Assembly: GCA_951406725.2 (NCBI GenBank)
Contig: OX597816.1
Location: 171,244,001-171,308,000, forward strand
Origin: Octopus vulgaris
Lineage: Eukaryota
Direction: 5' to 3'
DNA length: 64,000 nt
Shown here: piece by piece, positions 13,519 through 48,848 of the stretch
Numbering within the stretch: position 1 is the first letter of the stretch
Layout: the number at the start of each line of letters is the position of its first letter
Position numbers and translations under genes: made by a program
Notes under the pieces: model-generated
Seen by the model: the letters and a program-made list of their open reading frames with translations, nothing else
What the model was told of the DNA's origin: nothing
The model's database searches: none

Positions 13519-15612
13519 AAATTTGTTCTGCAAGCTTTTTCAGAAAATAACTTTTTAAATTTCTCTGTACAGTTGATGGGTGGTTTTACAAGAAATATGT
13601 TACATGTGTATGCTCTAATATATGTGAGTGTATATTGTGCTCGGTTTGCTAAATGATATTAAAAGATTGTATTATCATCAGAAAGTCTCCCTAAATAATA
13701 AAGTAGAAACAGATAAGCTATAATCTAAAATTTGAAAGTTTGCCAAAAACCGTCTTACATTTGAAATCTTCAAAGAGTAAGAATACATATCTATAATTCA
13801 AGGCCATCCCAATAATTAAAACTAATTCTCCTCCATGGCAAAAGTTAAGTTTTATTAAGTTTTAAAAAATTTTTGAAACAGCTAAATGGCAGGAATATAT
13901 TATTATCCTCATAAAAAAAAAAACATTAAAAAAATATCATAGAATGAAAATATTAAAATTTTGATTCCATCCGAAAAAATGCATATAGCATTTTACTTTC
14001 TACATAAATTATCAAAACTTTCAATATGTTTTTCTTATAGGTCATATCAATAGAAAAATTCTGCTCTGCTTATGATTCAATTCATGAAAATACTTATTAA
14101 ACTGGAAATTTTGAAGTAGTTCTAGTGCTGGTATTAAAGTAAAATTTTAATGAAAATGGACATTTGCCCACATTATGGTTAAACTGAAGAAATGTAATGA
14201 GTGTGTTGTATCATGTGTAAGCTGTGATGTATCATGAATGGAATGTTTATTATATTGTGTAAATGTGTAATAAAATACCTTTGATGTACAGACAAGGTAA
14301 GGGTTTATTTATATTATCATTTTTTTTTTTTTCACAAATGAACAGAAATATAATGAAATTGTCTCAAAACAAGTTCTCTTGTATTTACCAATCATAGTTA
14401 ACATAGAAAAATGACATGAAATTTGGGTGAGTAGTAAGCACTTGTTCCAAATTTTTTTTTTAAATTGATCTTGAAATTAATTGGGTTTGTAATGAGCAAT
14501 CATCTATTAATTTGATTGAAAGCTCAATGTTTTATCATGCAACTTTACAACAACCAAAGAAAAATATGAAATCAAATCGTGGCCTTTCTGCTTTCAAAGA
14601 TACGAATGTTGTGAGGTAAATGAGATATGAGAGGCAGTATCATATAAAACTGAAGATGGTGACTGAACAAGACTAGTGAGAGAATTTGTTACAAGTTTTA
14701 AGTAAAAACTGATATACATCAAACATGTTAAGATTCTATTTCTAGAAATCTGATATAACTGACAGATTTGTTTTCTTTACAGGATTGTAATTCAATTATG
14801 CTACAACTCAATTATAAGTTAGGTAATGTAAGAAATAGATTTTTAAAAAATTAAAGTTTTCTGGCAAGAAAAGTAAGAGAAAAATTAATGGCTTTATTTA
14901 GTTTGCTGCAAACTGACGGTAATTCTTCTTGGCTTGTATCAAGAGACAAGATACAGCCAATATCAGAGACCAGATAACAAGGTAGCAGCTATCTATTAAC
15001 AAATAACTGTGATAATAACCATATTTTTATTATAAAGGCTCCTTCCTTATTCTACCCCAAGTCAGCTTCACTTTTTACTAACTTATTTTAGTATTCATAA
15101 AAAGAAAATACTAATAAATCTGTTAGGAAAATACAAATATTAGACAAAACATATAAACACAGTGCATGTATATATGTATAGGTGTGTGTATGTATGTACA
15201 CAGATGTAAAATTTTATGTACAATTTAAAAAAATATAGATGAAAAATAAAGAAAATAACACAATTAAAAAATAACATTGATAAAAACAAAAAAAATAACA
15301 AACTACAAAATGTGTTTTCTTTTTACAGATACATTTTTTTTTTTCTTAAAGGCAAATTACTTTTCTTTGGAGCTTTGCTTAATGTCAACCAACAACTTTA
15401 TTATTAGTTTCAGGCATCAGCCTGCTATTGTTGTTGGAACAAAAAAAAAAAAAAGTCTCAAAATAATCTACAGCCATATTGTGTTCATTCAGTTATTTTC
15501 CATTCCTGAACAGATGTTAAACTTGGAAAGGTGGTAGGTATCAAGCTGGTGACTTTAATATTACAACTATTAAGGTTTGAGAAAGATGTCAGTCAACGTG
15601 TGGGGTGTAGGT

Positions 15613-15794
15613 TCATAACCGTTTGATAGTCCGTGCTAAACCTTTGGCAAGTGGGAAACTGGCACAGCAGAATCCCCTCATCATACGCCCCTGCACAACA
15701 TGGTACTCCTCATTGTCAGGTGAGATCAGTTGATCGCCATTTGCGGAACTATCCACGTTAGCATTGTCCTTAAGCCGCAGCTTGGCTAAGTCCA
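15613..15794 (-). CDS. Candidate alternative exon of the PIX gene: 108-nt cassette (15687-15794) or terminal exon by read-through to TGA
   Basis: Acceptor gactttgctgtacag|TG is phase 1, matching the GIT-binding exon. Open frame LDLAKLRLKDNANVDSSANGDQLISPDNEEYHVVQG, internal donor C|gtatga (phase 1), read-through RMMRGFCCASFPLAKGLARTIKRL*. Non-repetitive and GC-richer than the flanks. Confidence 0.6.
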
Positions 15795-16832
15795 CTGTAC
15801 AGCAAAGTCCCGGAAAAGCAGCATTAATAAAAGAGCAGGCGATGATGAGGCAAGTGGGAAGAAATACAGAAATAGACAATGGTGACAAGGTAACTGATGA
15901 CATAAGTCAAATTACCTGAGACTAAACACTGTAAGTAAGGTTAAAATAACAGTCTTATGGTTTCCAATAAGAATCTAATTACAAATTGTTTGAGTTATAC
16001 ACATGTGTATGTATGTGAGTGGACATATAATTACAGATATACACACACACAAAGGAGCAAAAATATTGATTTAAGTTGTAACATTTATACCAATGCAGAG
16101 CTATAGGAAACTGAGGAGACAGCATTTTCAATGTTTTCACTTTTTCTTGTCTATGTGTGTGCACATGTGTTAGAGTGCCTCAGCGAGTGTAATCTTGATA
16201 AATTGCCTAACCTGATGCACATGATCTAACAAGAGATAGCAAAAATAAACCAAAAACAAATCCAACGATTACGTCTCTGTACTTGCTTTAACAACCTCCC
16301 TTAATCTAAGAGAATAATTCTCTATAAATGGCCAACTGTTCTGAAAGATTAATCATAAAACCATGTAATGAAGACAGAAGCATTGTCTCCCTAAATTACT
16401 ATAAATTCATAAGAATATCTATAAAAGAGTATTACTGTGGGGAGGAGGAAAATCTGATAGAACACAACTACAGGCTTCAAAATGAATGCTATGTTATGTT
16501 GCTAAACTCTGGATTAAAAACTAACCCAGGATCAACATAGCCACTCATACTTTTAGCACTGATGAAATTAGTACAAATTTTAGAGATCAGTATAACAATT
16601 TGGGTGCTATATGTAATGTCACCTGATTTAACAGCACTAGCTGAATTCAGATGCCTTTAGCAGAGTCCCTACTTTGTTGCAAGCTTTCAGGCTAACATAA
16701 CTTCCTTCCTTCTTTCCTTCTTTCTTCACACCAATCTCAAATATAATGAGAAAGGTTTTGAGCACGGCCCTTCTTCCTTTAAGTAAGTCATTAAGGGGAT
16801 GACATCCCTCCTCTGAAAAACTGACCTTGTTT

Positions 16833-17062
16833 CTTAACCCTTTATCAATATAACCGGCCATATCTGACCAAAAATATTCAGCCTGTTCTATGTTCAAACT
16901 GGCCAGATCAGGTCTCTCACACCAACCCTACAATATCATCTTAAAAATTAGCAGCTATCTCATCAAAATCTCATAGCTACAAGATAATGCATGATTAGTT
17001 CAAAACAATTTGGATGACAAAGCATTAATTTTGGCAGAATAATGCAAACACTAAAGGGTTAA
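16833..17062. mobile_element. piggyBac-type MITE family 2
   Basis: TTAA-CCCTTT...AAAGGG-TTAA; related copies at ~51930-52158 and ~60583-61159. Confidence 0.85.
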
Positions 17063-17898
17063 AGAAATCAACAGTGCTACATAGTTGATCCATGTTGAGC
17101 CAAGTGGGAGGTTAGGGACAAGGAATAAAGTTATCATGATGCTATGAATCTGCTAATTTGAAGGTGGATAACAGGTAATATTCAATATCTTCCTGATATG
17201 AAAAGCAGACTTAAACAAATTGAGAAACAGTATTTACTGACCATGAGTATAAGCTGATATCAGTATACAGAACTGAATGCTGCTACCAATGTATAAACAA
17301 AAGCAACATCTGGGTCATTTTACTTTTTTACATAAAGAAGGAAGAAGCAGTGTCAAAAAGTTTGTTCTGATACTAATGAATCAATTATATTTATGAATTT
17401 CTACTCAAAAAGAACCCATAATTTTTCTGCCTTACACAGACATCGCAATTATTAATTCTTTACACTAATCGTCTAAGTCAGACTTTAAGAATTTATGTAT
17501 GAGGTTAGTAAAAAATTGTTTACAAATAAAAACAAAATACACGAATACTAATTAAAACTGTAAAATAAAATAATGGTAAAGAGTTCCATGAAATTTGTTC
17601 TTCTCTTATTTAACTTTCTACCATTAATAATTCAACATGAAATTGTGAAAACACATTCAACAGATAGCTTAAATTTTATTGTACATTGGCTTATATTCTT
17701 ACACACAGTAACTTAATATTTACTGTGTTTACAGATTAGGTTTAATATTAGAATTAAAATGCTACTAGAAAGCAAATGTCAGTCATATCATATATGGTTC
17801 TCTGAACATAGAGGAAGCCCTAACCATTTCTAATAGCAGAAAATAAAATAAATTACAACATATAAAAGGCATTTGGCTTCTGAATCATGAGTGTGCAT

Positions 17899-17960
<62 letters not shown>

Positions 17961-19420
17961 GAATACCTAAACTTATGTTAGTAATTGGTTGCAAGACATG
18001 CAATTAACTCAAAAACGATGAAACATGAAAAAACACTTTTAAAAATTAATTTGCTTATATTTATTTTGATAAATGGTTTGTACATATTTTCCCACATTCT
18101 ATTTGATCTTCTACTTTAGTATCGGTATTAAGGTGTTTTATTTTTAATTTGTATGCTGAAACCAATGTAAAGTCAGATAAATTGACTAATTAGCTTTTTT
18201 CTTCATTAATTTTTAAAAGGAAAAAATGTAACTCAAAATGATTGTAAGTCGAGGTATGCCTCTATATATGCATGCACACACACACACACACACACATAAT
18301 TGAAATGGAATTTGAATGGGATGAAAAGTGGTGGTGTCACTATATCAAATGAGAAGGAATAGAAATGCTATCTCTAAAAAATAATGCAAGGTGAGTGAAT
18401 CATATGAATGGAAGTTAAATGTAATTAATATAAACGAAAAAAAATATATTCTGCATATGAATTAGGAATGAAGGAAATACATGCAGGATTAATGAAAGAA
18501 TATATTCAGGGAAGATTTATAAAATCTTAAGTTCCAAAATGACATTTCTGCACAGTGAAGAATTTTACGATTGACTTTATCAAATAAAGCACTAGGTGAG
18601 TCAGATAAATTCCAGAAAACACATTATGGCCTGTGTCAACAAATAAAAAAAAACATAAAATGCTCATAACAGATTCCTACTACTCTTCTGTACACAGTAC
18701 AGGTTACTAACTTATTCATTGCTCTTTGTGACCATTTTATATTTTGTAAAGACACCGAAGTTGTTTCTTTAACTAAACACCATCATTTCTGTGTCATAAT
18801 TACTGTGACAATACATTCTATCACACACAACAGCTATAACTAAACAAAATAAGATTCAGTAGCTACAACACAATTTCAAAATGAAAGTTTAAATCAAATA
18901 ATTGATTAGAGATTAAATAGATTACAATTCTGTACTGAAAAGTCTCCAAGTTCACCTTAGCATTTTTTTCTAGTATCATAGTGAAATAATTACTAAAATA
19001 TGAAATATAACAAGAGTATAACTCACTTTAGAATTATGTAGTGCCCATAACAACTAATAGAATAATCAATGTATGTCACTTATGGAATGAATAACCAAAG
19101 TAAGCCATGTGTTTTAATATCTTTCCCCCCAGTCACCTGTTCATTACATTTAGAATAACAAAAAAATTTGCATTGTTTTAGCTTATAACTGGGTTTGTGC
19201 TTGGGGGTGTGTAATGAAAAGGCTTAGATTAGAAGCTGAAAAGTATCTTAAACTGTTATAACTTGTGCAATTTATTTTTCAACAATCAAACATATTCAAA
19301 GAAATTAGAATATTTAATTTGGTCTTATGCAAACAGTGCCCTTACAGTAAAACGAAAAAAAAATAAAAATAAAAACACTCACACGCAGAAGCACATAATA
19401 AAAGGTAATATATAAATATT

Positions 19421-19652
19421 AAAGGCAGCGAGCTGGCAGAAAAGTTAGCACACCGGGCGAAATACGTAGCCGTATTTCGTCTGCCTTTACGTTCTGAGTT
19501 CAAATTCCGCTGAGGTCGACTTTGCCTTTCATTCTTTCGGGGTCGATAAATTAAGTACCAGTTACGCACTGGGGTCAATATAATCGACTTAATCGGTTTG
19601 TCTGTCCTTGTTTGTCCTCTCTGTGTTTAGCCCCTTGTGGGTAGTTAAGAAA
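19421..19652 (+). mobile_element. SINE family D (Nin/Deu-like domain)
   Basis: aaggcagcgagctggcagaa head, B box GTTCAAATTC, gcctttcattctttcggggtcgataaattaagtacc core; copies at 22152 and 62875. Confidence 0.88.
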
Positions 19653-20029
19653 CAGGTAATATACAAATATGTACATGTGTGTGTGAGAGTAAGAGCAAGA
19701 CAGTGAAACAGTGTAGGGCTGTTTACAGTATCCAACCAGACAGCCAACGGACCCACTCAATACTGTAGATAACAGCAAGACCCCTACCCAAACCCTACAT
19801 AATAGAAGGGAAAATAATCAAGCTTGCCATAGACCATAAATATCCTGAGCTGAAATTATGGTTTTGAAAAGGAAAATGGAAAATGAAGGAAAATAAAAAA
19901 TGAACTTCATAGTAACTTCTGAAATGGATGCAGCACAACAGAAAGATGTCAGTCAACTACAGGTGTGCTCATCAATCTACTTTACCCTAACGAGATTGTG
20001 CTGATTAATCAATTGGCAATCACTGTCAT

Positions 20030-20290
20030 CATCATCATTGTTGTTGTTTTAATGTCCACATTTCCATGCTTGCATGTGTCAGACAGAGTTTACAGGGGGC
20101 AAATTTTCTAAGGCCAGATGCCCTTCCTGTTGTTGCCAACCCCCCACCTGTTTCGAAGTAAGATGATATTTTCGAACGGGCCAAACATGTTTTCATAAAA
20201 TACTGGAATTGAATGATACTGCTTTTATGACAATGACACTGATTAACAATTGTCATGCAATGTCAAGATAAGGAGACACAAACATACATG
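20030..20290 (-). mobile_element. Old SINE/RTE-tail remnant
   Basis: (cat)n...tttccatgcttgcatg...gatgcccttcctgttgttgccaacc is a diverged form of the family E 3' end. Confidence 0.6.
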
Positions 20291-20296
20291 CACACA

Positions 20297-20781
20297 CATC
20301 ATCATTGTTCGACCGGGGTCGAGACAATGGAATTTACCATGCTACGCCAGACTTCACGGTCCATCATGGCATTACGAAGGTCCTGTTGCCGGATGCCTGT
20401 ATCCCTGGAGATTACATCAGGGTAGGAGAGTGTGCACCCTCTGGTATCGCGAGTAGATGGCTTCCAGAGGAGAAGAGTAGAAATTGCCTCGTTTTCAGCT
20501 CAACAACAATGTCCAGCAAACTGGACTCTCCTACCTTTCACAAGAGATGACACAGGTGGTAGTTTCCCATATATTTGCATTTTGGTTGGATGGCGCTTCC
20601 ACGAGAGATTTTGAGCTCTCATAAGGAGGCGAGTGTAGGTTCCATCCAACCGCCTCTCAAGCTTCTTTGATAACGTCCAGGTTTCTGAGCCATATAGTAG
20701 AATTGGTTCGACTGTGGTTTTGAAGATTTCAAGTTTGAAGTCTCTACTTAGATTTGATGACCAGATCTTATGCATGTCATT
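20297..20781 (-). mobile_element. 5'-truncated RTE-clade LINE (ORF C-terminus and 3' end)
   Basis: MHKIWSSNLSRDFKLEIFKTTVEPILLYGSETWTLSKKLERRLDGTYTRLL...QFAGHCC*AENE...MMDREVWRSMVNSIVSTPVEQ*, ending in (TGA)n; one premature stop at 20500-20502. Confidence 0.9.
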
Positions 20782-22151
20782 ATACACACATACACACACA
20801 ATGGGTTGCTTTTAGTATCCATCCACTAGGTCCATTCACAAGGCTTTGGTCAACCAGAGGTAACAGTAGAAGATGCCATATAGTGAAATGAACCTGAAAT
20901 CATGTGGTTGGCTATTAAATGAGTGTTAAATTAGAAGTACAATACTAAATGATACTAAATTAACATTTTCCAACAGTTCTAAAGAAAGTAAATCAGAAAG
21001 TAGCCCTTATACTCATAGTGGCAGCTTAGTGAGTACTCAGAAGAACAAAGATACATCTGAACTAACAAAGGAACTTTGGCATAATTGTTTTGCTACAAAA
21101 AAAGAAATAAAAGCAGCTAAATTTCTATAGGCCAAACACCCGCCACTGGAGGATGTACTTCTAGGCAGATTTCTATGTGAGAAAATAGTCATGTAAACAG
21201 AACTGTTTAGGGACTCAATAAGAAAAAAAAACAATCATTAATAATTTCTTTTGTTCCAAGAAATCTCTGATACCAACAGTCATATTTACTTTGCTATAGG
21301 TCAGATAATACATTGAGTGAATGTATATCATTGTGTGACTGCCTACACACTTGACTCAGCAAAAGGTGAGTTATTTTGGAGTCGTAAATCACAAAGGCAA
21401 TTTTTCAGCTAAATAACTTTGGCTTTGAAGATAGATTTTACTATACTTATAAAAGTTATACTAAATCTCAATTGTTATGATTTCAAAATATCAAATGTCT
21501 TATGCCTAAATGTATATATTGTATCCAAGAGAATTTGAACTAGGAATCTTTACTTCTAAACTGATAACAATTGTTAATGAGTGCCATTGTCATATCCTGG
21601 AGGATAAGAACATTATTATCCTTAGAGTACAAATAAAGTGTTGTTGTTTGAATTTAATGTATTGCTATGTAGACAGCCAAAAATAAGACAGATGTCAGAG
21701 ATGAAACAGATCATTGAATAAATAGCTAGTGAGAAACTTTCAATGAGAGACAGCAGAGGCTCTTCCTGGGGTTACACGGTAGTAATGTTGAGCAGCCATA
21801 CTGGTGATAAACATTACTTCTTGATAAATAAATACTCTAAATTTTAAAAGATTAGGTTAAATGTAAGAAAAAAAAATGTAATGAACAACTACTTATCTCA
21901 AACATTTAGACATAACCACATAAATGACATCAAGAAAATATACTTCTTCATGTCATCACCCCCCACTCCCAATGTCTCAACCATAATAATAGGCTGTCAC
22001 AAATTTTGAGCAAGTAACTGTTTCTACTTAAATTTAATTTAAATCAAAGAATGCAAAAATATCAATATCTAAAAGGATTCTTTTAAAGAAACCTAGCAAA
22101 ACATTTCTTTCATAGCACAAACTATTATACTGGAATGTTCAACATACCTAT

Positions 22152-22374
22152 TTCTACCCACAAGGGGCTAAACACAGAGAGGACAAACAAGGACAGACAA
22201 ATGGATTAAGTCGATTATATCGACCCCAGTGCATAACTGGTACTTATTTAATCGACCCCGAAAGGATGAAAGGCAAAGTCGACCTCGGCGAAATTCGAAC
22301 TCAGAACGTAGTGGCAGACGAAATACGGCTAAGCATTTCACCCAGCGTTCTAACGTTTCTGCCACATCACCGCC
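22152..22374 (-). mobile_element. SINE family D
   Basis: Reverse complement of the 19421 element; 14-bp TSD ttcaacatacctat. Confidence 0.9.
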
Positions 22375-23044
22375 TTCAACATACCTATGATCAAAGACAT
22401 TCCAACCTTGACCGTACCTTGCTTTTCAATATTTTGGAAAACATCCAATATGTTCTCTCTATTGTGAAACAGAAGAGTGTAATCTGATAGAGATTTTGCT
22501 GTCATATCTAGCAGGTAGAGTGATCACAGAGACTTCTTTTGTTAGTTCATGAAGAAAAATTTAATGATGTATGTATTCATGCAGATACATTAGATCTAGG
22601 TTCATAACTATCAATATATGGGTTATAAAATATAAGGCACAAATTCCCATACTTGAACAATATGATGAAATTACTAAAATATGACTAAGTTTGAACATAT
22701 ACAAGTTTGTGATGCTATGCCATAAGCAATACAGAAAATATTGAGATCTTAAATCAATAATAAATATTAAAATGCAGGTAAAACCAATGTTATAAATAAA
22801 ATATGGAAACAAAAAGATTAAAATCAGTAGCTAATATTTCTCAATCCTTTGTTATTTTACTTGTGAAACAATACCCTAACTAAAAACCATAATTTTATCT
22901 TGAAGCTCACAAATAAGAAACTCAAAAGATAGTTCTTCATATGAACAAGGTCAACTTACGACAGAGAAAACTAAGATAAAATGTGAAAATTAAAAGAAGT
23001 TTCAAAACAAAAAAAAAAACTGTTTCATGCATACATACATATAT

Positions 23045-23365
23045 CATCATTTAATGTCTGTCTTCCATGCTGGCATGGGTTGAACAGGTTGACAGGGGGT
23101 TGCCCGCTGAAGAGCTGCTCAGGTTTCATGTCTGTTTTGACACTGTTTCTACGGCTGGATGCCCTTCCTAATGCTAACCACTCCGAGAGTGTAGTGGGTG
23201 CTTTTTACATGCCACCGGCACGGGGGGCCAGTCAGGCGATACTGGCAACGACCTCGCTCGAATCTTTTTACACATGCCACCAGCACAGGTGCCTGTAAGG
23301 CGATGCTGGTAACGATCACGCTCCTAACGGTGCCTTTCACGTGCCACCAGCCCAGAAGCCAGTTA
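23045..23365 (-). mobile_element. Family E retroelement (RTE-type 3' end, (ATG)n tail)
   Basis: catcatttaatgtctgtcttccatgctggcatggg...ggatgcccttcctaatgctaaccactccgagagtgtagtgggtgc. Confidence 0.8.
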
Positions 23366-23439
23366 GCCGCTCTTTGCAAAGGTGCATTATGTAGAGTGGA
23401 ATGCTTTACAAGATTCCATATGAATACTCTGTGTAGGTG

Positions 23440-23945
23440 TGTCATCACCGTCATCACCAATTAAGGTCCCATTTTCCATGTTGGCATGGTTTCTACGGCT
23501 GGATGCCCTTCCTCACGCCAACCATTTTACAGAGTGTACTGGATGCTTTTACGCAGCACTGGCACAGATGCATTTACAAGACACTGATTCAGGTGCTCTT
23601 TACCTGGCACCAGTTCCCATGAGCCTACAAGATCAAGAATGCTCAGCTGGAGAGGGACGCAGGGGACAAACCTGTATTCAAGGGCAACTACACTTTCACT
23701 TAGCTTGACATCCCTTTTCATGCACAGCAAACCCCCAGGAGTTTCAGTCCCTTGTCATCTCCTCTGTGAGTCCCAACATCTGTAGATCCTTTCTCACCAC
23801 TTCGTCCCACAAGTTCCTTCTACAATTAGAGATCAGCACCTCTTGATGCAATTGTCTTCACTCATACACATTTCTTGGCTATATGAGTGCAGTCTTCTCT
23901 CTTGCATGCTACATTTGATGCCTCGTATACCCAGTTTTTCTCTCT
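23440..23945 (-). mobile_element. Decayed RTE LINE 3' end
   Basis: Minus strand reads RGIKCSMQERRLHSYSQEMCMSEDNCIKRC (degenerate RTE C-terminus); 3' end resembles family E. Confidence 0.6.
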
Positions 23946-24175
23946 GTCATGTGTGTGTGTGTGTGTGTGTGTGTGTACTCATACACAAGACTTCACAAGC
24001 TGTGAAAAAATATATATATATAATCACACATTCACACCTTATGTATGTGTGAAGTCTTATGTACGTGTACACTCACTCACATACACCCATAATATATATG
24101 TATATGAGAAAATATTTTTTTAATAGATCAAAATCTAACAGTTTATTGTAATGCCACACTAACTCATAAAAACAT

Positions 24176-25444
24176 AAGTTAAGTCAAAAGTCTTTCCAGA
24201 TTTTCACTGATGATTTTTGGCAACTCGTACCTTTATGTTATATCATTTTGACACAACTAGTTATCCAATCGTTATTAAATCTTTTATGCTTTATTTTCAT
24301 ATATAACGTAAACATTCTTTATTCTTTATTTTACAGTTTTAATATTGAGAGGTGTAAAAAATTGCAATTAGAGGCCTTTTAACACAACCTGTAGGAAAAA
24401 GGACTGAGCGCAAGGGCAGAAACAAAACAAATGAATGGTGTGGAAGGCCCAGGAACTGTCAAGGAAGGAGTGGCACAAAACTGGTTCAGACATTTGAAGG
24501 AAGGTGAGGCTTTGCTTCAAATGGTTGAACAGCAACAAAGCACAAGCTCTTATACATTTTCACAAAGAGGAATGACCATCAAGGAAACCTGTTGTAGAAG
24601 ATGAAGTCTTCTTTCAAATGGTTAAACAACTGCCAAGCACAAGCTCTCATACATTTTTGGCAGACCTTGCTCTTTCACAAAGCACCATCAAGTGACTCGG
24701 TCCTTATGAACAGACACTATCAACAAGTTCCTCATGAACTGACCAGTGACTAGGCTCAGCAACATGTGAACATTTGCAACAACTGCCAGCAAATCTTTGA
24801 GATGCCCATTTTTTGGAGTTAAATTGTAACTGGGGATGAAAGTTTGATCTATTTTCGTAATCCTAATAAGAGAAATCAATGGCTTCATTCTAGCTAGGCT
24901 TCAGAACCTGACGTCAAACAAGTGTTGTTTGAACAGAAGATTATGTTGCGTGTTTGGTGCAATTTTTTGAGATAATGCGCTTTGAGCTTGTTCCAGATGA
25001 TTACGTTTCAATGCTAACCTTTGCGCTCAACAACTGCAGCAAGTACATGATGCTTTCAAAGCCTGCTGCCAAGCACTGGTCAATCAAAGACTTGCACTCC
25101 AACAGAATGACATTGCCCCAGCAAACACAAACTTAAAGAACGTGAAGGGCTGGAAGTACTGCTCACCCTGCCTACAGTCCAGACCTGATTCCATCAGATT
25201 ACCACCTTTTCCAAGCCAGGGTTCATTTCCTGCATGGATACATGTTCAATAATGTGGATGAAATTGTAAATGGGTGCAAGGGGGCTTTTTGCATCTAAAC
25301 CAGCTAAATGGTTGCTAGCATTGAATTTCTGGCTCAATGATGGCAACAGACAATAGAATATGATGGTATATATTTACATACACAATTTGTTTGGACTATT
25401 AATTAAAATTTGAAATATGAAAAAACTTTTGACTCAACCTGGTA
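24176..25444 (+). mobile_element. Degenerate mariner transposon, second subfamily
   Basis: Motifs AQNWFRHLKEG, IVTGDE, HPAYSPDLIPSDYHLF; imperfect TIRs gttaagtcaaaagt / acttttgactcaac; ~45-bp internal duplication (~24517 and ~24613). Confidence 0.85.
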
Positions 25445-25627
25445 CTTTCTAAATCAATGATGATAAAAACATAGCCACATGTCACTTTAAAAAAAAAAGA
25501 AAAGAAATCAAGCAGCTTCACATCAACATACTAAATTTAGTTACCAAAACATAACTATTATTTTTTTTTTCCTCAGTCCCTCAAAATTTATAAGTAGACT
25601 TCCAGGAGATTTGTTTTACATTTTTTT

Positions 25628-26035
25628 TTTTTACTTGTTTCAGTCATTTGACTGAAGCCATGCTGGAGCACCGCCTTTAGTCGAGCAAATCGACCCCGGG
25701 ACTTATTCTTTTGTAAGCCCAGTACTTATTCTATCGGCCTATTTTTACCGAACCGCTAAGTGACGGGGACGTAAACACACCAGCATCGGTTGTCAAGCAA
25801 TGCTAGGGGAACAAACACAGACACACACATACATATATATATATTATATATATATATATACACACATATATACGACACGCTTCTTTCAGTTTCCGTCTAC
25901 CAAATCCACTCACAAGGCATTGGTCGGCCCGAGGCTATAGTAGAAGACACTTGCCCAAGGTGCCACGCAGTGGGACTGAACCCGGAACCATGTGGTTGGT
26001 TAGCAAGCTACTTACCACACAGCCACTCCTGCGCC
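25628..26035 (-). mobile_element. SINE family A, full length
   Basis: Reverse complement of 8448-8871. Confidence 0.93.
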
Positions 26036-26909
26036 TATATGTATTTGAAAAATTTCAAAACACTATGATGGAACATTTCCACCTTTTGGATAATCTATAT
26101 ATGTCTACAGATTTCTATGTACATTTGCTGCAATCAATTCTACCCCACATCTGAGAGCATGACCTAGTGTATATATATATAAACATTACAAAGCATTCAT
26201 GAACATACATTCAAACACATGTACTAACATTCTTAAGTTTATTCGGTGTTTAACAAATTTCATATCTAATCAAAATCTAGGCAGGGAAATATATAAAATA
26301 AAGACAAAAAAAATGAATTAAAACTGAACAAATATCTGATATTGTACTGACATTTGCTTTAGAACAACTAAACCAAATAAATTTTCTTTGGAATAGCTAA
26401 CCCCAATAAATAAACTTACTGATTTGCAAATATTTTCTAAGGATTAGCTAAAAAAAAATTGGAAATACTTTTCAAGTTACACTATGAATAGCTCTGTATG
26501 ATATAAAAGGCTACAACATAATTCATAGATTAACAACTTTTAAACAACAATTTATGAAATACATTCTAACTACAGAAAAATATTCAAAAATAAAAAACAA
26601 CAAAAGTTTGAAATAAATTGGCTAACAAAAAACAAGATGTGATAATCTCTTGTGGACTAAATAACAAATGAGCAATTAAGCATGCTATCTTGATGATGCT
26701 AGGGTGCAAATTGTGTGACTGAACATAAAAACAAAACTCACAACAAGAGATACAACAATAAATACAGTGGCAACTACATTAATAACAACCATGCAGACAC
26801 TAGGCAGGAAACTAAAATGAAGCAAGGACAAACAGCAAATCTTATGACTGAACTGAGATACAGGACTGATGCGGAAATCTTCAAGGCAATAAACTAAACA
26901 GCAATTGAA

Positions 26910-27300
26910 TATATATAAAAGTGAGGTTGTGTGCTGTCTGTCTCCTACGATTTAGATTCCTAACGACTCCCACATTTTGCGGTGCAGTTTAACCAAAACC
27001 GGCTATCTTATAGTCGTGATTCATATCGAGCCCTTCTGGGTATTAGCGTGCGTCTACGATGAGTCTACGATTTAAAAAATTTACCATCAATTTTTCCCAT
27101 TTTTAATGCATTTTTGGCATATATAAGGGAAGTAACTCTCTAAAAATTTATTATTAAATCTCAGAACGTAAAAAGCTACAGTAACACCCCCCCCCTTTGT
27201 GGTTAGCCATATTGAGATGGCTATTATACTTTACATCTCTAAAAATGCTTATATAGTTATTTCCCTTACAAACCCGAGCAACGCCAGGCGATACTGCTAG
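26910..27300 (+). mobile_element. Non-autonomous Helitron-like element
   Basis: 3' end CCCGAGCAACGCCAGG..CTAG followed by T; 5' TATATATAAAAG and short CTGT repeats; CpG-richer than flanks. Confidence 0.7.
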
Positions 27301-27789
27301 TTGAATATAAATATAAACTCTATCTTCTATTAAAGTAACGGTTGTGGTGATTACAGTGTAAACTAAATGAAGTAATTAAAACATTTCGGGGGTTTTTTTG
27401 TTTTTTCTTTGGTTTTTTTTCATATTTTAGTCATGGGAGGATGAGCAGCATCCGCAACCTTATTCAATATCTCCAAAAACAGTGAAAGAAAATGCCTAGA
27501 CTGGGATGTCTAGCCCAATGCTTGAAACAGGGTGAATTCTGCTAAGGCACCATTGGCCAGGGAGTGGAGTTAAACCAGATGACTATGCAAAAAACAAGAG
27601 TGATTCTTCCAGGGGATCTGGACACAATTTCATTCTACCAAAGACTGTGTTCTACCAGAAGCCACGGTGGATGAGATTTGTCCAAAGTGCTACACCATGG
27701 GATTAAACTCAAAATCATGTAGCTGTGTACTAAAAATTTTAACAGCACAACCATGCCTGTGCCCTGCATGTATGTATATATAGATAAGA

Positions 27790-28168
27790 TGTGTCCGTGG
27801 CACATAAAAAAAAAACACCATCCGAGCGTGGCCATTCGCCAGCCTCGTCTGGCACCTGTGTCGGTGGCACATAAAAAACACCATCCGAGTGTGGCCGTTC
27901 GCCAGCCTCGTCTGGCACCTGTGTCGGTGGCACATAAAAAACACCATCCGAGCGTGGCCGTTCGCCAGCCTCGTCTGGCACCTGTGTCGGTGGCGCATAA
28001 AAAGCACCCACTACACTCACGGAGTGGTTGGCATTAGGAAGGGCATCCAGCTGTAGAAACACTACCAGATCTGACTGGCCTGGTGCAGCCTTCGGGCTTC
28101 CCAGACCCCAGTTGAACCGTCCAACCCATGCTAGCATGGAAAGCAGACGTTAAACGATGATGATGATG
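27790..28168 (+). mobile_element. Family E element with three 63-bp internal tandem units
   Basis: ggtggcacataaaaaacaccatccgagcgtggccgttcgccagcctcgtctggcacctgtgtc repeats with 63-bp period (27863, 27926, 27989); ends in (gat)n. Confidence 0.9.
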
Positions 28169-28606
28169 CACTGAAAAATATATGTACACAATAAGGGGTA
28201 AGTAGAACTAAAGGATTTTGAAGCTGCCCACATACTGAATTCTAGCTGGAAGAGGTGGAAAATATTAATAAGAAAGAATTAAATACCTTCATACTTTAAA
28301 GTCAAATTTGAGGCACAACCAGTGCCACAGAACAAGCCTTCCATATGAGCCATGGCAGACTCTATATGATCATTGGACCCGGCAGAAATAGCATCCAAAT
28401 CTTCCTCTAAAACACACACTACTAATTTAAAAAGGAAGGACACAATAGTCCAAACTAGCATGATCTGAAATGTCTTTTATAACAGATCTGCTTAGTTGGG
28501 GCTGAAGTGGGACTAAACAACAACAGTAGCCTTCATTGCAACTTCCACAACTACATACATATTTATAAATATACATGTATGCATGTATTTATTATATATA
28601 TATATA

Positions 28607-28766
28607 GGCGCAGGTGTGGCTGTGTGGTAAGTAGCTTGCTTACCAACCACATGGTTCCGGGTTCAGTCCCACTGCATGGCATCTTGGGCAAGTGTCTTCT
28701 GCTATAGCCCCGGGCCGACCAAAGCCTTGTGAGTGGATTTGGTAGACAGAAACTGAAAGAAGCCTG

Positions 28767-28828
<62 letters not shown>

Positions 28829-29020
28829 TTGTTTGTCCCCCTAGCATTACTTGACAACCGATGCTGGTGTGTTTACGTCCCCGTCACTTAGCGGTTTGGC
28901 AAAAGTGACCGATAGAATAAGTACTGGGCTTACAAATAATAAGTCCTGGGGTCGATTTGCTCGACTAAAAGGTGGTGCTCCAGCATGGCCGCAGTCAAAT
29001 GACTGAAACAAGTAAAAGAG
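28607..29020 (+). mobile_element. SINE family A, full length
   Basis: Collinear with 8448-8871. Confidence 0.93.
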
Positions 29021-29215
29021 TATATATGCAAGAGCAAGTGTGTTTGAAAAGGTTTAACGAAAGCACTTACTAGAAGAAAAAAGTTTTCCCAAAAATGGTT
29101 AGTAACATCCTCACAAAAGATTTCATAAAATTATTTTTACATTTCAAAACTTTATCAAGTAATCCTCAAAGACATTCAAATATATATATAAATATACACA
29201 CATATGTGTGCATGC

Positions 29216-29249
<34 letters not shown>

Positions 29250-31319
29250 GTGCGCGCACACATAGAGAGAGAGCACAATGACCAAATAGGTTATATTAAT
29301 ATTTGATGGTTATCTCCAAGTGATTTAGCAAATGTGAGTTGCAAATGTATAATGCCTAATATAGAATAGAATTTCCTTGAGCAAAGTACTTACGTCAACT
29401 TGCCTGAGTTTATCTAATTTTAAAGTATGTACTAACTGATCAGAGTAAACTAATTTGCAATATACTAGCTTCTAAATTATGACTGAGAGTCATATGCACT
29501 CTTTACTGTCACAGACACTTGTGACAATTACAGACTCAAGTGTCTTTCCAGTGGCCAAAAGAGTAAGATAGCAAACTATTAACTTGATGTTTTCTGACAG
29601 TATTTTCCCAAAAGAATACTATCACTACCACACCATCATTATCATCATCAACATTTTACAATAAAAAGATTAACTGCAAACAAGTTGTAAGCCAAATTCA
29701 CACTACACATGTGTGTTCTTTTTTCATCATCATCATCATCGTTTAACGCCTGCTTTCCATGCTAGCATGGGTTGGACAATTTCAATCATACCTGCAAATT
29801 TGAGAAGGAAGAATCTTGCACTTACACAGTCCAGAAATTTTGTTATGAATTTTTCTGGACTTGAAGGTAAAGGATTCATGAAAATGTTGTTGATTTAATA
29901 TGAATAAGTCAATGCAACAGAATGGTTTGGCAGACTCATTAGAATATCAGATAGGATGCTTTGCAATATTTGTTTTAATCCTCAGCATATTGCTAATCCC
30001 ACAGTGAAGTCAACACATTGTTTTCCATCCTTTATTGTGGCAATAAAGAAAATACCAATCCAGAACAATGTGAATTAGTGGAATTGTTAAAGAGTTAGAT
30101 GAGATGCAGGCAGTTTCAGTCTTTTGAACTCAAACTCTGCTTCTTACCACAAGGAACAGTGATACGATTGTCAAAAAAGATGATAGTATGACCAAAGAGA
30201 CAAGAAAACCTGTAATTAGACAACTCCAGCAGGTTGGCAACCCAAGAAGGGTATTGCTAAATAAAATCTTCACATCAGTTAAGAATCAACCAGGAATAGG
30301 ATTAATGGAAAGTGTCTTCATGGACGGATGCAGTCTGAAAATTTGGGGAGAAGCAAAAGGGGAAAACGTCTATAGGAATACACAGGATTATAATCCACAA
30401 TGTTTAAGTTTCAAGGGGGTATTATAATTACTGATAAGACTGGAAGCAAAATCATAAAACTAATATAACGAGAAAAGTTGTAAAATTCCACATTTTCTTT
30501 TCTTTTCTTTAATATATGGTACTGTGTAAGTGGGTAAGTTTAGCAGTAAATTTAAGTTAATTGACTGGGTATCCATTTTTAAAGTAGCTGAAGAGTGACT
30601 CTTAGAGTAGAGTTAAATATAACATGATAAAAATTTTTATAATAGCTCTTCATAATATTTTTACAGCACTTGATTGTGTTATAACCAATATGGAAGGTGT
30701 CAATATCATATAATCATTACCATAAGAAGATACAGTGTCTCTGAATAAACAATAGATTAATATTTTCTCTTCGCAAAACAGATTTTCAATAAATGTTTTA
30801 TGCCAATTTCTTGATACGTGACTAGTATATCAATTTTCTTTATCGTTTATCTTTTTTTTTTTACATAACGTACATAAACAAGACCTCCATTATTTCTTTC
30901 ACTAATTCGCACATGCAAGAATTTTATTTTAGCATTTTCACTTTAACCTTAATGTCATTTTGAAAGAACAGAAAGAAAATGGACTCGAGACCAGTAAAGT
31001 TGAAACTACTGATATAATTGGGGCAGGGTGAAGTATGGAAAAAAATGGTAACCGATATAATTTGCTTTTGCAATATGGTTTCAAATTATTACTACAAAAC
31101 TGAGAATATGTGTCTACATATGTACACACACATATCTATATATGTATATATAAACAGGAAACGACATATGTATACATATATACAAATATGAACACATGAA
31201 TGTAAATACGCACATGTATGCTGATACTGAAATTAAACATTAAAATGCACGAATAAAAATATACATCAAGTAATCTACATATATATATATATATATGTAC
31301 ATATATACATATATATATG

Positions 31320-31505
31320 TGCAGGTGGCACGTAAAAAGTACCCACTACACTCTTGAGTGGTTGGCGTTAGGAAGGACATCAAGCTGTAGAAACTCTTTC
31401 AGATCAAGACTGGATCATGGTGCAGCCATCTGGGCAGCCCTCAGTCAAAACCGTCCAACCTATGCTAGCATGGAGAACGGACGTTAAACGATGATGATGA
31501 TGATA
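31320..31505 (+). mobile_element. Family E 3' fragment
   Basis: ggttggcgttaggaagg...gctagcatggagaacggacgttaaacgatgatg. Confidence 0.85.
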
Positions 31506-31885
31506 CATACATACATACATATATCCATAGATACATATATATATATATATATATATACATACAAATACATACATACATACATATATACATAGATATATAT
31601 ATATATATATAGATATATATACATATACATACATATGAATACATACGTATGTATAGATACACAGATATATACACATACATATAAATACATACATATATAT
31701 AAATACACAGATATATACATACGTATACATATATACTTATATATACATACATACTTATATATATATATATACATATGCATATATATATATACATACATAC
31801 ATATGTATACATATATACTTATATATATATGTAAATACATATATATACATTTTTACTTATATACACATATATGTATATATATGTG

Positions 31886-31945
<60 letters not shown>
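31505..31945. repeat. Compound TA/TACA microsatellite
   Basis: Directly visible. Confidence 0.9.
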
Positions 31946-32729
31946 AAAATGGGACAAGAACACAAACAGTTAGTTGAAACAAAAAAGGGGCAACAAAATA
32001 CCCAGACAGATGATACAAAGAAAACAAGGACGGATCATTCGGAGATTTCTTTCCTCAGTCGAGTTCCAGAATTTCAGCTGGTTATACTCGAGATTGCTCC
32101 AATCTGGCCAGGAAAAAATAAGCTAAGAGCATTATATTCCTTTGAAAAAAAGCAGTGAATGTATATGAAAACAAGGACGGGGAATAAAACAGAAATGTTA
32201 CACAAATACAAATAACAGGACATAACAACAGGTGTCTTTCGACTAATGACAAATTAAATTAAGCTGGCATGTGTGGAAGTAAAGCCTTACAGCAGGGACA
32301 TACGATTTATCAAGCACAGGAAGGAATATAGATGTTGCACAGACAGTAGTCCAACCAAGAAAGAAAGGTTTGGCCTGGCAGAACACTGGTCACGTGGAGA
32401 CAGAAGAGAGAGAGGTAGAGGCATACATGTGCGTGTATGTCTATCGGGTTATGTGTGCATTTTGTTTCGTGTATGCACGTGTGCTTGAGTATGTGTGTGT
32501 ATGTGGTTGTGTGTACATTTATGTGTGTGTGTGTGTGTGTATAAAGGTATGTGTGTCTGTGTGCATGGGGTTGTATGGGATAGGTATCTGTGCATTCCTG
32601 TGTGTGTATGTGTGTACGTTTGTGCTTGTGTGTGCACATGGGTGTATGTGGTTGTGTGTGTATGCATGTGTGTATGTGTCTGGAAGTATGTGTGTGTGTG
32701 TATATGTGCATGTAAGTGTGGTGTATGTG

Positions 32730-33095
32730 TGATAGGGATCATTGGACTCTTAAATGAATTGTTAGAAAGGATCACAAAAGTACAGCTCCCAAAATTACTG
32801 CAGACCACCTCAAGAACCAACTTTCCACAAAAACAGCCAGAAGCTGCACAAAGCTGGATTACATGGGAAGGGCTGCAATCAAAAAACCACTACTTTCAAA
32901 AACAAACATTGCAAAGCATTTAGAGTGGAGTAAAAACCTACAGATTTGGTCCCAAGAGCAATGGAAGAATGCTATTTTCTCGGGCGAGTCATCCTTTACC
33001 CTATTTCTGACCACCAGCCAAGTATACATGTGGAGACAGCCAAAAGAAGCATTTGATCTAGACAGCCTTCTTCCAACTGTTAAACATTGGAGGAG
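32730..33095 (+). pseudogene. Tc1-like transposase fragment
   Basis: GRAAIKKPLLSKTNIAKHLEWSK...WKNAIFSGESSFTLF...MWRQPKEAFDLDSLLPTVKH is a degenerate Tc1 KKPLL...W..V.FSDES.F...PTVKH signature. Confidence 0.85.
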
Positions 33096-33468
33096 CATCT
33101 GTGATTCAGAGCAACTGTCGACCTCCCAAACAAATGAAAACCTCCCGAAAATTTGTGAATGTGGAATCTTCTCCTCCTTCTTCTTCCTTACCAAGAATTC
33201 ACAACGACCTCGAACCCACAAGAGTAAACAAGAGAGACAGAGACAGGCAGAAATAAGGAAAATGCCTCTTGTATTTGAATACTATGCAAATATTCTTTTA
33301 AAAAACTTTTCTTTTAGTTTTACCAAAAATTTAATTGTTTTCCATACTTACAGCTTAAAAAGTCTCAATAACTAAAACCGGTACTGAAATATTTTTATAA
33401 AATTATTTTAGTATTTTCTACCTTGACTTTTTTTTCCATATATACCGTGTGTTCCTTTTCAACCTTCT

Positions 33469-33521
<53 letters not shown>

Positions 33522-33669
33522 TACATATATATATATACATACATATTATTATGGCTGGCCCCTCATTATCGAGTATGCCCATTGCACGAAGCTTAGCTGT
33601 TACTGGTGCTGTGATAGAATGTGACTTTTTAGCCCAGCTAAAGATCTACAGTGTCTTGTACAGAATTGG

Positions 33670-33816
33670 CAAGGTTGTTTATGGAAGGCAAGCAGTCGCC
33701 CATGCATACCAGCCACCCCTCTCCACATCACTGATGTTATCCAAGGGAAAGGGCCGATACAGCTTGGCACCAGTAATATCGCAACTCATTTCTACAGCTG
33801 AGTTAACAGGAGCAAC
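33670..33816 (-). mobile_element. SINE family C internal fragment; a 3' piece also lies at 33908-33960
   Basis: Matches 6260-6405. Confidence 0.75.
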
Positions 33817-33964
33817 ATATATATATATACACACATACATACATATATATATATATACATACATACATTCATATATATACACACATACATACATATGAGG
33901 AGAGGAGGAGACCCCCTTCGGTCATAAATGACCATGGGATTGCACCTAGAAAGTTACCTTATAT

Positions 33965-34480
33965 ATCATCATCATCATCGTTTAGCGTCCGTTTTCCATG
34001 TTAGCATGGGTTGGACGGTTCTACTGGGGTCTGTAAAGCCAGAAGGCTTCATCAGGCCCAGTCAAAATCTGGCAGTGTTTCTACAGCTGGATGCCCTTCC
34101 TAACGCCAACCACTCCGTGAGTGTAGTGGGTGCTTTTTACGTGCCACCCGCACAGGTGCCAGACAGAGCTGGCAAACGGCCACGAACGGATGGTGCTTTT
34201 TATGTGCCACCGGCACGAGGGCCAGGTGAGGCTGGCAACGGACACAAACGGATGGTGCTTTTTACGTGCCATCGGCACGAGGCCAGTCGGGGCGGTGCTG
34301 GCAACGGTAACACATCTGCAATTTCCATTGATCGATTTCGATTCTGATCCTCACTTGCCTCAACAGGTCTTCACAAGTAGAGTTTTGTGTCCCAAGAAGG
34401 GAAGGTATGCATACATAGGCTGGCTCCATCCCATGTAGAAGGCCACGGGTTATGGACTCACTTGTCCTGCCGGGTCTTCT

Positions 34481-34482
<2 letters not shown>
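33965..34482 (-). mobile_element. Family E element, longest copy in window
   Basis: (cat)n-cgtttagcgtccgttttccatg...; extends beyond the internal units to gtcctgccgggtcttctc. Confidence 0.88.
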
Positions 34483-34521
<39 letters not shown>

Positions 34522-34697
34522 TAAGCAATTAAGGGTTTAGCAACGAATTGCCTCACCACACACCGAATTTAGAAATAGCAGTCAAAGAGTTATAGCTATT
34601 CTTTCTACTAAAAGGGAGATTTCCCTTTTACATGCCGAAATCTACTTGGTGTAATTAATGATTATTCCAAATTAATTAATTTCACCCTATATTGTTA

Positions 34698-34742
<45 letters not shown>

Positions 34743-35519
34743 ATGATATATAGATAGATAGATATACATATATACATACACATACCCATACATATATTCA
34801 TACATACACACACACACACACTAAATATGCATTGAAAGAATTTGCTTTCTGATGTTTGAATTCTGAATTTTAGCCTATCCTCCAAAATGGTGAGTAGATA
34901 CACAGTGGGCATGGAGTATTAATGAGAGAAGTGGCTCTATGCCAGGTGATGAGAGGTTAAAGTATGACAGAGGGACAGGAACAGGTGCCAGTGCTATAGA
35001 AAAGCTACAAGACTATCCCAGCTGGAAAGAGGGGAAAAGACATGGCGATGAGGTGTCAGGACATACCCTCAAAGTACAAACAGGTGAGTACAAGAGAGAA
35101 TAGGGGCAGAGGACCAGAAGGGCTAGGGGTAGATATATTCATGTAAGTGTGAAAGGTAAGTGGTTGAGGGTTAGAGATAGGGATAGAAGTGAATGAAGTG
35201 AAAGGTGAACACAAGTGCAGTTTGTGGAGGAAAGTGAAGAAAATATAGGGGGGGGGTCAGAGTGATTGAGGGGTTAGGGAATAGTACGAAAGGGCAGGGT
35301 GGAGGACAACAGAATGATAAAACTGTAAATAGATGGAAAAATAAGGAAATGACATGAAGTGTGGTGAGAGGTGAGAAGGATGCAGAGACAGGATCAGAGA
35401 AAATTAGCAGCAGAAATAGCAAGCGAAGAACAAAGGTGGTGCGGAGACTGATGGCAGATATGAGAGGATGTTTGAGGAAACACACACATACATTCATATT
35501 CATTAGCATATACTCTCTC

Positions 35520-35924
35520 TCTTTTACTCTTTTACTTGTTTCAGTCATTTGACTGCGGCCATGCTGAAGCACCGCCTTTAGTCGAGCAAATCAACCCCGA
35601 GACTTATTCTTTGTAAACCCAGTACTTATTCTATTGGTCTTTTTTGCCAAACCGCTAAGTAACGGGGACGTAAACGCACCAGCATCGGTTGTCAAGCGAT
35701 GTTGGGAGGACAAACACAGACACACAAACACACACATACATATACATATATATATATATACATATATACGACACGCTTCTTTCAGTTTCCGTCTACCAAA
35801 TCCACTCACAAGGCATTGGTCGGTCCTGGGCTATAGCAGAAGACACTTGCCCAAGATGCCACGCAGTGGGACTGAACCCGGAACCATGTGGTTGGTTAGC
35901 AAGCTACTCACCACACAGCCACTC

Positions 35925-35925
<1 letters not shown>
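35520..35925 (-). mobile_element. SINE family A
   Basis: Reverse complement of 8448-8871. Confidence 0.92.
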
Positions 35926-35955
<30 letters not shown>

Positions 35956-36253
35956 TATGTGTGTGTGTGTATGTGTGTAGTACATAAATGTACACACCAC
36001 ATTCTGTGTACATTTATGAACATACATATACAAATACATATAAAACAATAAAGAAATAATGCAGAGAACTTGTTACAATTCAAAGAGAGAATTAATGATT
36101 AATTAACTCTTTATATATTTTATGTGAATCATAGAGAAAAATAAGAACAAATAATTAAAAACCAATGGTTGCCATAAGTTTATCTAAATGATATATTCAA
36201 CACACGCATATTTTCATAAAGCCACATCTCTCTCTCTGTATATATATATATAT

Positions 36254-36661
36254 TACTCTTTTACTTGTTTCAGTCATGTGACTGTGGCAATGCTGGAGCA
36301 CCGCCTTTAGTCGATCAAATCGACCCCAGGACTTATTCTCTGTAAGCCTAGTACTTATTTTATCGGTCTCTTTTTGCCAAACCGCTAGGTTACGGGGACG
36401 TAAACACACCAGCATCGGTTGTCAAGCGATGTTGTGGGGACAAACACAGACACACAAACACGCACATACACATATATATATATATATAAACATATATACG
36501 ATGGGCTTCTTTCAGTTTCCGTTTACCAAATCCACTCACAAGGCTTTGGTCGGCCTGAGGCTATAGTAGAAGACACTTACCCAAGGTGCCACGCAGTGAG
36601 ACTGAACCTGGAACCATGTGGTTCGTAAACAAGCTACTTACCACACAGCCACACCTGCGCC
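36254..36661 (-). mobile_element. SINE family A
   Basis: Reverse complement of 8448-8871. Confidence 0.92.
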
Positions 36662-36926
36662 TATATATATATATATATACTGAGATAGATTGTGTAGAAA
36701 TGTCAGGCATAACTAAGGAAATCCTACCAGACAAGGAGGGTGGTTTTTCATTGGATACTGTGGAACAATAAGCAAAACCTATCAAAGGGTAGCTAAACAC
36801 AGCAGAGTCGATAGTCATCCAACAACCAGAATGTGAGAGACTCCTAGCCTATGCTCAGACACCTCTCTAGGAGAAGGAAATCTCAAATGTATCACCTGCA
36901 ATTTCATTTGCTTCTATAATGTAGAC

Positions 36927-37127
36927 CAGTGCTTTTCAAACTTTTTGCTGGAGTGGAACCCCAAGGAAACATTCCACTGGCTCGAGGAACCTCTGTGCAA
37001 TAATTTAATAGCCTTATGCACACATATCTGCACAGGAGAATTAAAAATTACTGCCGATTTTAGCAGTTTTATAACTTCTTGCGGAACCCCTGGACTGTAC
37101 TGGTGGAACCCTGGTTGAAAACCACTG
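36927..37127. mobile_element. hAT (Charlie-type) MITE
   Basis: TIRs CAGTGCTTTTCAA / TTGAAAACCACTG, subterminal GGAACCC repeats, 8-bp TSD atgtagac/atatagac. Confidence 0.88.
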
Positions 37128-37469
37128 ATATAGACAGTTCTTCTTCTTAGGCAAATGCATACATTGTTTAGAGAGTGAAATTGGCCTGGTACAAGGCCTT
37201 CTGTCTCTTTAAAAAGCTTCAGGCACAAGCATTGCATGATTTTTTTTCAACATCTCTGTCATGTTGCTTAATTTGCCTGGTCGTAATTGAGAGAGTAAAA
37301 CATTCACGGAAAAGTTCCATGATGGAATGAAGGCATGAGTCTGCAAGTGGTAACTCTGTGAAGACCTCCTGCAAGTACCAAGCAAGACCAAAAAATCATA
37401 TCCATGTTGCTTTAGGAGAACAAGAAATTAACAGCATTGATTGAAATCGAGTTTCATCCATTGTATGCA

Positions 37470-37528
<59 letters not shown>

Positions 37529-37589
37529 ATGTATATTTATGTACATATGTGAATGTGTTGTAAATTAACTTTAATACACACACATATAC

Positions 37590-37730
37590 GTGTCACTTAG
37601 CGGTTCGGCAAAAGAGACCGATACAATAAGTCCTGGGCTTACAAAAGAATAAATCCCGGGGTCGAGTTGCTCGACTAAAGGCGGTGCTCCAGCATGGCCA
37701 CAGTCAAATGACTGAAACGAGTAAAAGAGT
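37590..37730 (+). mobile_element. SINE family A, 3' half
   Basis: gtcacttagcggttcggcaaaagagacc...gagtaaaagag. Confidence 0.9.
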
Positions 37731-38054
37731 ATATATACAAATCTATACATGCAAATATACATGCACAAAATATATATATTGGAAATCCTTCTCTTGATAG
37801 TGACGAAAGCAAATGCAACATTTGAAAATCTGTATCTTCAGCTGGTGTCACAGTGTCACAAGCATTTGCTCTTTGGCCTGTACACTTCATCTGAATGGAA
37901 TAGTAAGAACTGAATTAGCCTTTGCCTGAAGAAGGGTTCCAACTGTAGCCTCTTGTCAACTACAACCACCCTTGAATTGGTCTCACCTGCCATAATCATT
38001 TCCAGTTGTTTCAGTTAAAGGAAGCAACTGCTACATGTGTCTAATTATATGTGT

Positions 38055-38267
38055 TTAACCCTTTCGTTACCAACCCAGCTGAAACTGGCTCTGGCTCTTT
38101 AGTATAAAGTGTTGATTTAAAATCTTCCACCAAATCTTAGTCACAATTTATGTTCCTAACACTAGCTGAATGATAACTCAGTTATTTTACTAAATTCTTT
38201 GTTATATTTAAAATTATTGGAAGAAACACAGAGCATCTCAAAATAAATACAGTAACAAAAGGGTTAA
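38055..38267. mobile_element. piggyBac-type MITE family 1
   Basis: TTAACCCTTT...AAAGGGTTAA; reverse orientation to 11755. Confidence 0.88.
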
Positions 38268-46727: not shown

Positions 46728-47330
<603 letters not shown>

Positions 47331-48699: not shown

Positions 48700-48734
48700 C
48701 TATCTTTCAACACACACACACACACACATATATA

Positions 48735-48771
<37 letters not shown>

Positions 48772-48787
48772 ATGTATATATATATAT

Positions 48788-48848
<61 letters not shown>

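Follow-up and report, generated by a model that had tools for sequence, protein, structure and literature searches.

The closest described counterparts of the exon reported here belong to mouse beta-Pix. Two of its isoforms, termed beta-Pix-b and -d, have in common a neuron-specific insert that is the product of exon 19, and beta-Pix-d ends with the insert plus 11 residues and has no leucine zipper (PMC7135283, PMC11722029). The vertebrate insert contains the Src site Tyr598 (PMC10532151), and the available sections of PMC11581827 hold nothing further on the beta-Pix tail. The GIT-binding domain (GBD) contacts GIT through residues I535, L536, V538, I539 and Y542. The coiled-coil trimer is needed for PIX localization and for the formation of GIT/PIX condensates, and monomeric beta-Pix or a GBD peptide abolishes GIT1 phase separation (10.1101/2019.12.18.881771).

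We analysed 64,000 nucleotides of Octopus vulgaris DNA (contig OX597816.1, positions 171,244,001 to 171,308,000; hereafter the window) that include part of the PIX gene. Octopus PIX has a spliced alternative last exon that directly follows the GBD exon and ends the protein in a tail with two adjacent cysteines (Table 1).

Table 1. Features of the octopus PIX gene in the window (position 1 is the first letter of the window)
Feature	Position	Strand	Remarks
GBD exon of ARHGEF7/PIX	54962..55054	-	Pfam PF16614 match; phase-1 donor common to both 3' ends
Intron removed in the di-cysteine isoform	15795..54961	-	39,167 nt; junction contigs in runs X1 and X9
Alternative last exon, coding part	15613..15794	-	60 codons (split first one counted) + TGA
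Tyrosine in acidic context (DNEEY)	15703..15705	-	Partly conserved only
Proposed internal donor GGC/GTATGA	15681..15689	-	Phase-1 GT at 15686; present, probably chance
Near-invariant 19-residue C-terminal motif, predicted membrane anchor	15613..15672	-	FCC (Cys codons 15669-15664), Pro, +4 amphipathic pattern
3' UTR start	15470..15612	-	Contig coverage; end not mapped; candidate AATAAA at 15402, 15031 and 14898

A protein search placed the PIX exons in colinear order on the minus strand of the contig (G000:C3), from 171418388 to 171174687, and exon matches together with Pfam searches of the exons and of relatives gave the SH3-DH-PH-GBD-coiled-coil order of PIX (ARHGEF6/7). The GBD exon matches its Pfam family with an E-value of 9e-6 and 26.3 bits, slightly below the 26.8 cut-off; by sequence comparison it keeps the equivalents of all five GIT-binding residues listed above, and its 3' end is the phase-1 donor T/GTGAGT. 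The original prediction, made from the letters of the window, had placed a phase-1 acceptor about 39 kb beyond the GIT-binding exon, followed by an open frame through DNEEYH and a stop after a cysteine tail. All of this is borne out: an AG lies immediately before 15794, and the frame entered there runs through DNEEYH and ends RMMRGFCCASFPLAKGLARTIKRL at the TGA at 15615-15613. UGC splicing-regulator motifs near this acceptor were dropped from consideration, as the other two acceptors carry them too.

We checked RNA-type contigs from 4 of 24 runs (X1, X5, X9 and X10). Two of the checks proposed at the outset, for the 54962->15794 junction and for reads through 15686 to the stop, gave positive results. 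The junction is present in contigs of X1 and X9, which come from two studies (2/4 runs); in both, the match stops at 15794 and is followed by 30 letters identical to window positions 54962-54991, one short of the 31-letter bridging rule. A 31-mer graph is expected to give an overlap of 30 letters at a branch point, which would suit a GBD donor with more than one way to continue. Single contigs of X9 and X10 span 15794 to 15470/15473, running past 15687/15686 and the stop into the 3' UTR; X1 contigs stop short of 15686, X5 contributed no contig here, and contigs give no expression levels. The runs have no RNA annotation on record, and it is the splice junction itself that indicates RNA origin. 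The GBD exon and the last exon each have a single match in the assembly, which speaks against a processed copy as the source of the spliced sequence. The exon is a real, spliced exon of octopus PIX.

The intron between the two exons holds a tandem array that begins ~370 bp beyond the GBD exon (window 53393-54595), in which a unit of ~129 bp recurs in about 9 copies with 89% matches. Elsewhere in the window are open frames (20305-20811, minus strand) that we take to resemble a reverse transcriptase of an RTE-type LINE in its C-terminal part, and fragments that are presumably mariner/Tc1 transposase-like (338-907, 24691-25295, 40927-41176 and 49965-50132).

The coiled-coil end of octopus PIX is encoded by three exons (G000:C3:171181925-171174651) located 78-85 kb beyond the stop of the alternative exon; a phase-1 acceptor precedes the first of them, and an acidic tail closes the last. 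A PF16523 family search of the assembly gave no match because the domain is divided among these three short exons, which were later found by protein search. With the coiled-coil exons 78 kb further downstream, the exon at 15613..15794 is an alternative last exon, and the presence of two phase-compatible partners for one GBD donor is the hallmark of that arrangement. None of the octopus contigs examined showed a GBD-to-coiled-coil junction; we infer it from the phase-compatible acceptor and from relatives that have both forms. The proposed exchange of the coiled-coil end for a basic tail with two cysteines is right, and parallels beta-Pix-d, which lacks the zipper; the exon carries its own stop. 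The distal octopus C-terminus (L018 651-776, minus strand) has a Trp-acidic-Thr ending like the vertebrate PDZ-ligand end, and other mollusc coiled-coil forms end differently. Two small exons precede the GBD exon upstream of the window on G000:C3 (L025 5695-5739 and L027 6644-6676), and their peptides are optional among three O. bimaculoides models.

The peptide of the alternative exon is conserved in frame across molluscs, as had been anticipated for a true PIX exon placed directly after the GBD exon; the junction contigs and the mollusc PIX models both place it there. It matches the end of the Octopus bimaculoides RefSeq models XP_014789757-9 at 100% identity and a chiton model at 69%, and it also terminates RefSeq PIX models of chiton, abalone and apple snail. 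The exon is present in 20 GBD-bearing database proteins, 18 of them from ten named mollusc species in four classes (cephalopods, chitons, bivalves and gastropods). In 19/20 the protein ends at the exon's own stop; among these are 12 RefSeq XP_ models, which represent 5 species. Five carrier species (Liolophura, Batillaria, two Haliotis and Pomacea) also have a separate GBD-to-coiled-coil form. The sole contrary row among the 20, Pinctada P0163 ('hypothetical protein'), continues from the exon into the coiled coil, after the cysteines and via unrelated sequence, a join that we read as a prediction artefact. A profile search of 1.84 billion protein representatives gave 16 matches: 15 carry FCC and the tail, and the other one is a protease-like repeat with no relation to them. 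The divergent forms P0011, P0178 and P0180 may widen the range beyond the named species. Pfam contains no family for the exon, and the ESM Atlas yielded no usable look-alike.

Some gastropod and bivalve PIX proteins (P0135, P0143, P0147, P0149, P0161 and P0012) carry an optional short basic segment, beginning with Cys, after the GBD exon. It combines with either C-terminus and looks as if the GBD exon had an alternative donor further downstream. In octopus, reading through at 54961 yields a run of Phe and then a stop, and neither these basic inserts nor the extra Pinctada segment had a convincing counterpart in the window or the flanking 110 kb.

By sequence comparison, the selected element of the exon is its 19-residue C-terminal motif, F-C-C-x-x-[FM]-P-[LI]-x-[KR]-x-[LI]-x-[RK]-x-x-K-[RK]-L, in which FCC is followed by a basic amphipathic pattern. 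The invariance of FCC in our alignment of 22 distinct sequences is circular, as they were selected by FCC; the unbiased count is the 15/16 profile matches. Substitutions in the tail are mainly K/R and L/I swaps, and 21/21 distinct terminal tails retain a charge of +4 together with a hydrophobic moment of 0.62-0.75, computed for a helix over the last 11 residues. The amphipathicity of the octopus tail is modest in a shuffle test (p 0.024). The cysteine pair lies 16 residues from the end and so cannot be a CAAX box. S-acylated anchors are usually built in this way, with a cysteine pair beside a phenylalanine and then a segment of segregated basic and hydrophobic residues. The tail is likely a membrane anchor of this type, with predicted palmitoylation and basic residues.

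A less likely alternative is that the tail serves in protein binding, or as a metal/disulfide site, and docks for example on a partner or, via its basic face, on microtubules, on which beta-Pix-d acts. Lipid anchors usually need less than the near-invariance seen over these 19 residues, which include Phe, Pro and the terminal Leu; taken by itself, this invariance could just as well reflect the binding of a protein. An AlphaFold2 prediction from 6 sequences places no helix in the tail, in a low-confidence model (pLDDT 56, pTM 0.14). Beta-Pix-d promotes tubulin acetylation and is located in dendritic shafts (PMC7135283, PMC11722029). Against a binding motif, the residue pattern fits S-acylated anchors, and no partner is indicated by a Pfam family or an Atlas look-alike. 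The two roles are not exclusive.

About equally doubtful is the proposal that the exon is the orthologue of vertebrate exon 19, an ancestral bilaterian terminal di-cysteine exon to which vertebrates later added the internal donor of beta-Pix-b. In both lineages the exon lies directly after the GBD exon, its length is similar (60 vs about 70 residues), and the order DL, acidic Tyr, Arg, CC is colinear in global alignments. These likenesses are not matched by sequence similarity: HHalign comparison of the exon with the vertebrate insert is not significant (P 0.27 local, 0.5 global), and 5/6 shuffle tests gave p 0.09-0.74 whereas the coiled-coil control gave z 22. One fish tail (P0063) aligned with p 0.015. 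The profile search, which covered 1.84 billion representatives, retrieved no vertebrate insert, no named intermediate taxon came to light, and phase 1 is obligatory for any exon at the GBD donor. The conserved half also differs, being the 3' tail in molluscs and the insert in vertebrates, where fish read-through tails vary. Whether through deep homology or convergence, as originally suggested, the exon agrees with that of beta-Pix-b/d in position and motif order, without significant sequence similarity. The d-type model P0063 (Myripristis arhgef7b) has at its end Arg, four residues and Ile-Cys-Cys, with the same Arg-to-Cys spacing as octopus, a spacing absent from the fish read-through tails P0040, P0074 and P0122.

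Far less likely is dual use of the exon, in which a donor at 15687 would also splice its 5' part to the coiled-coil exons, giving a beta-Pix-b-like isoform. The downstream coiled-coil exons do lie behind a phase-1 acceptor, which would keep a join made from 15687 in frame. The 5' part has conserved motifs of its own (DLxKL and SP..[ED][ED]Y). In vertebrate proteins the two forms part at an Arg (of 33 sequences with the insert, 27 are b-type and 6 d-type); these sequences suggest that use of an internal donor gives b and read-through gives d. In octopus the phase-1 GT that splits an Arg codon exists at 15686, as predicted, but it scores no better than chance. On a generic donor matrix it reaches -3.4 bits, vs +2.0 to +7.4 for the gene's four clearest likely donors (two further candidate exon ends score 0.0 and 0.2 bits). 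Of 2566 intronic GTs, 43% score at least as high; 70% of 20,000 synonymous recodings contain a phase-1 GT that is no worse, and another phase-1 GT in the last exon (15642) scores slightly higher.

The context of this GT is not conserved either. Among the 22 distinct sequences, compared as proteins, the Arg-Met that it needs occurs only in octopus, though other molluscs may have a donor at another codon; relatives have Q-V, H-Q, R-P, R-H, Q-P, N-M or Gly-rich insertions at this position, and the stretch contains indels. Conservation is highest after the supposed donor, with 18-22/24 residues identical to octopus vs 14-20/35 before it (7 relatives). The 5' part without the cysteines, as expected of an insert-plus-coiled-coil form at that site, occurs in 0/20 GBD-bearing database proteins, a count that includes multi-isoform RefSeq sets (all 15 members listed for the Haliotis cluster, and for Pomacea 15 out of 18), and the RNA is too shallow to exclude a rare b-type join. 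The two of four runs that cover the site show no joint or loose end at 15687; contigs drop rare variants, and we do not count this blank as evidence. The exon is likely used whole and the internal GT incidental, and the proposed dual use finds no support. The acidic-context tyrosine is also variable: its position is Tyr in 14 of the 22 distinct sequences, Phe in 4 and neither in 4, and its replacement or loss in 8/22 weakens the Src-site parallel.

Although chance frames of similar length are abundant in the window, the idea that the exon is one of them, an artefact of intron DNA, is already refuted by the spliced contigs, the RefSeq models and the conservation in four classes.

We return to the preferred reading, to which we assign a probability of roughly 0.65: the GBD exon is spliced to the whole terminal exon, yielding an isoform that would keep the GBD, be coil-less and monomeric, and likely be held at membranes by predicted palmitoylation and the basic tail. 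Splicing to this exon would retain the GIT-binding helix. Loss of trimerization and of the acidic native C-terminus would leave a monomeric PIX, like beta-Pix-d, and S-acylation of the two cysteines, together with the basic amphipathic tail, is predicted to tether it to membranes. Such a monomeric, tethered GEF may bind GIT monovalently and, in doing so, could shift Rac/Cdc42 exchange activity from GIT/PIX condensates and coiled-coil-dependent scaffolds to membranes.

The exon is already in automatic gene models, and with the dual-donor logic unsupported the surprise is limited. Its interest lies in a natural isoform that keeps the GBD and lacks the coil, and in a tail nearly unchanged from chiton to octopus, which suggests a targeting signal that is under strong selection and so far undescribed. 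A literature search, with subscription papers and supplements outside its scope, found no description of mollusc PIX isoforms. It likewise found no report of beta-Pix palmitoylation; palmitoyl-proteome supplements, outside its scope, may list ARHGEF7, and the term 'palmitoyl' is absent from the available sections of PMC7135283 and PMC11722029. Somewhat more speculative than the orthology considered above is the broader view that PIX has had a terminal di-cysteine exon behind the GBD since early bilaterians, and that the nervous systems of both molluscs and vertebrates retain a monomeric, lipid-anchored PIX that draws GIT from condensates to membranes. If this were true, the mollusc motif would expose an overlooked palmitoylation of mammalian beta-Pix-d. 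The mollusc tail offers a direct test of the role of the beta-Pix-d cysteines.

Among known systems, the mollusc isoform is closest in outcome to mouse beta-Pix-d (PMC7135283): the exon is spliced directly after the GBD exon, the GBD is kept, the coiled coil is lost, and the exon has its own stop and adjacent cysteines in its tail. It differs in showing no significant sequence similarity, in having no sister b-type isoform found in molluscs, and in the residues after CC, which are 16, near-invariant and basic/amphipathic in molluscs vs 7 and non-basic in tetrapods. Like mouse beta-Pix-b, which combines insert and leucine zipper, it has an acidic-context tyrosine after the GBD (PMC10532151), yet there is no sign of the mollusc exon joining the coiled coil at the proposed donor, and the tyrosine is not constant. 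The vertebrate-like isoform logic of the original prediction thus holds for the position and the d-like outcome, and lacks support for the dual donor and the b form. Alternative 3' ends also switch lipid anchoring in the same pathway in Cdc42 (CAAX/CCAX forms; 10.1101/366369), which is a GTPase rather than its GEF and carries its cysteines in a terminal prenylation box rather than 16 residues from the end. Within PIX itself, the Drosophila dPix isoforms F, H and I likewise use alternative 3' regions and have distinct, antagonistic roles, including at synapses; these isoforms lose the Git-binding site, whereas the mollusc isoform retains it (PMC11483038).
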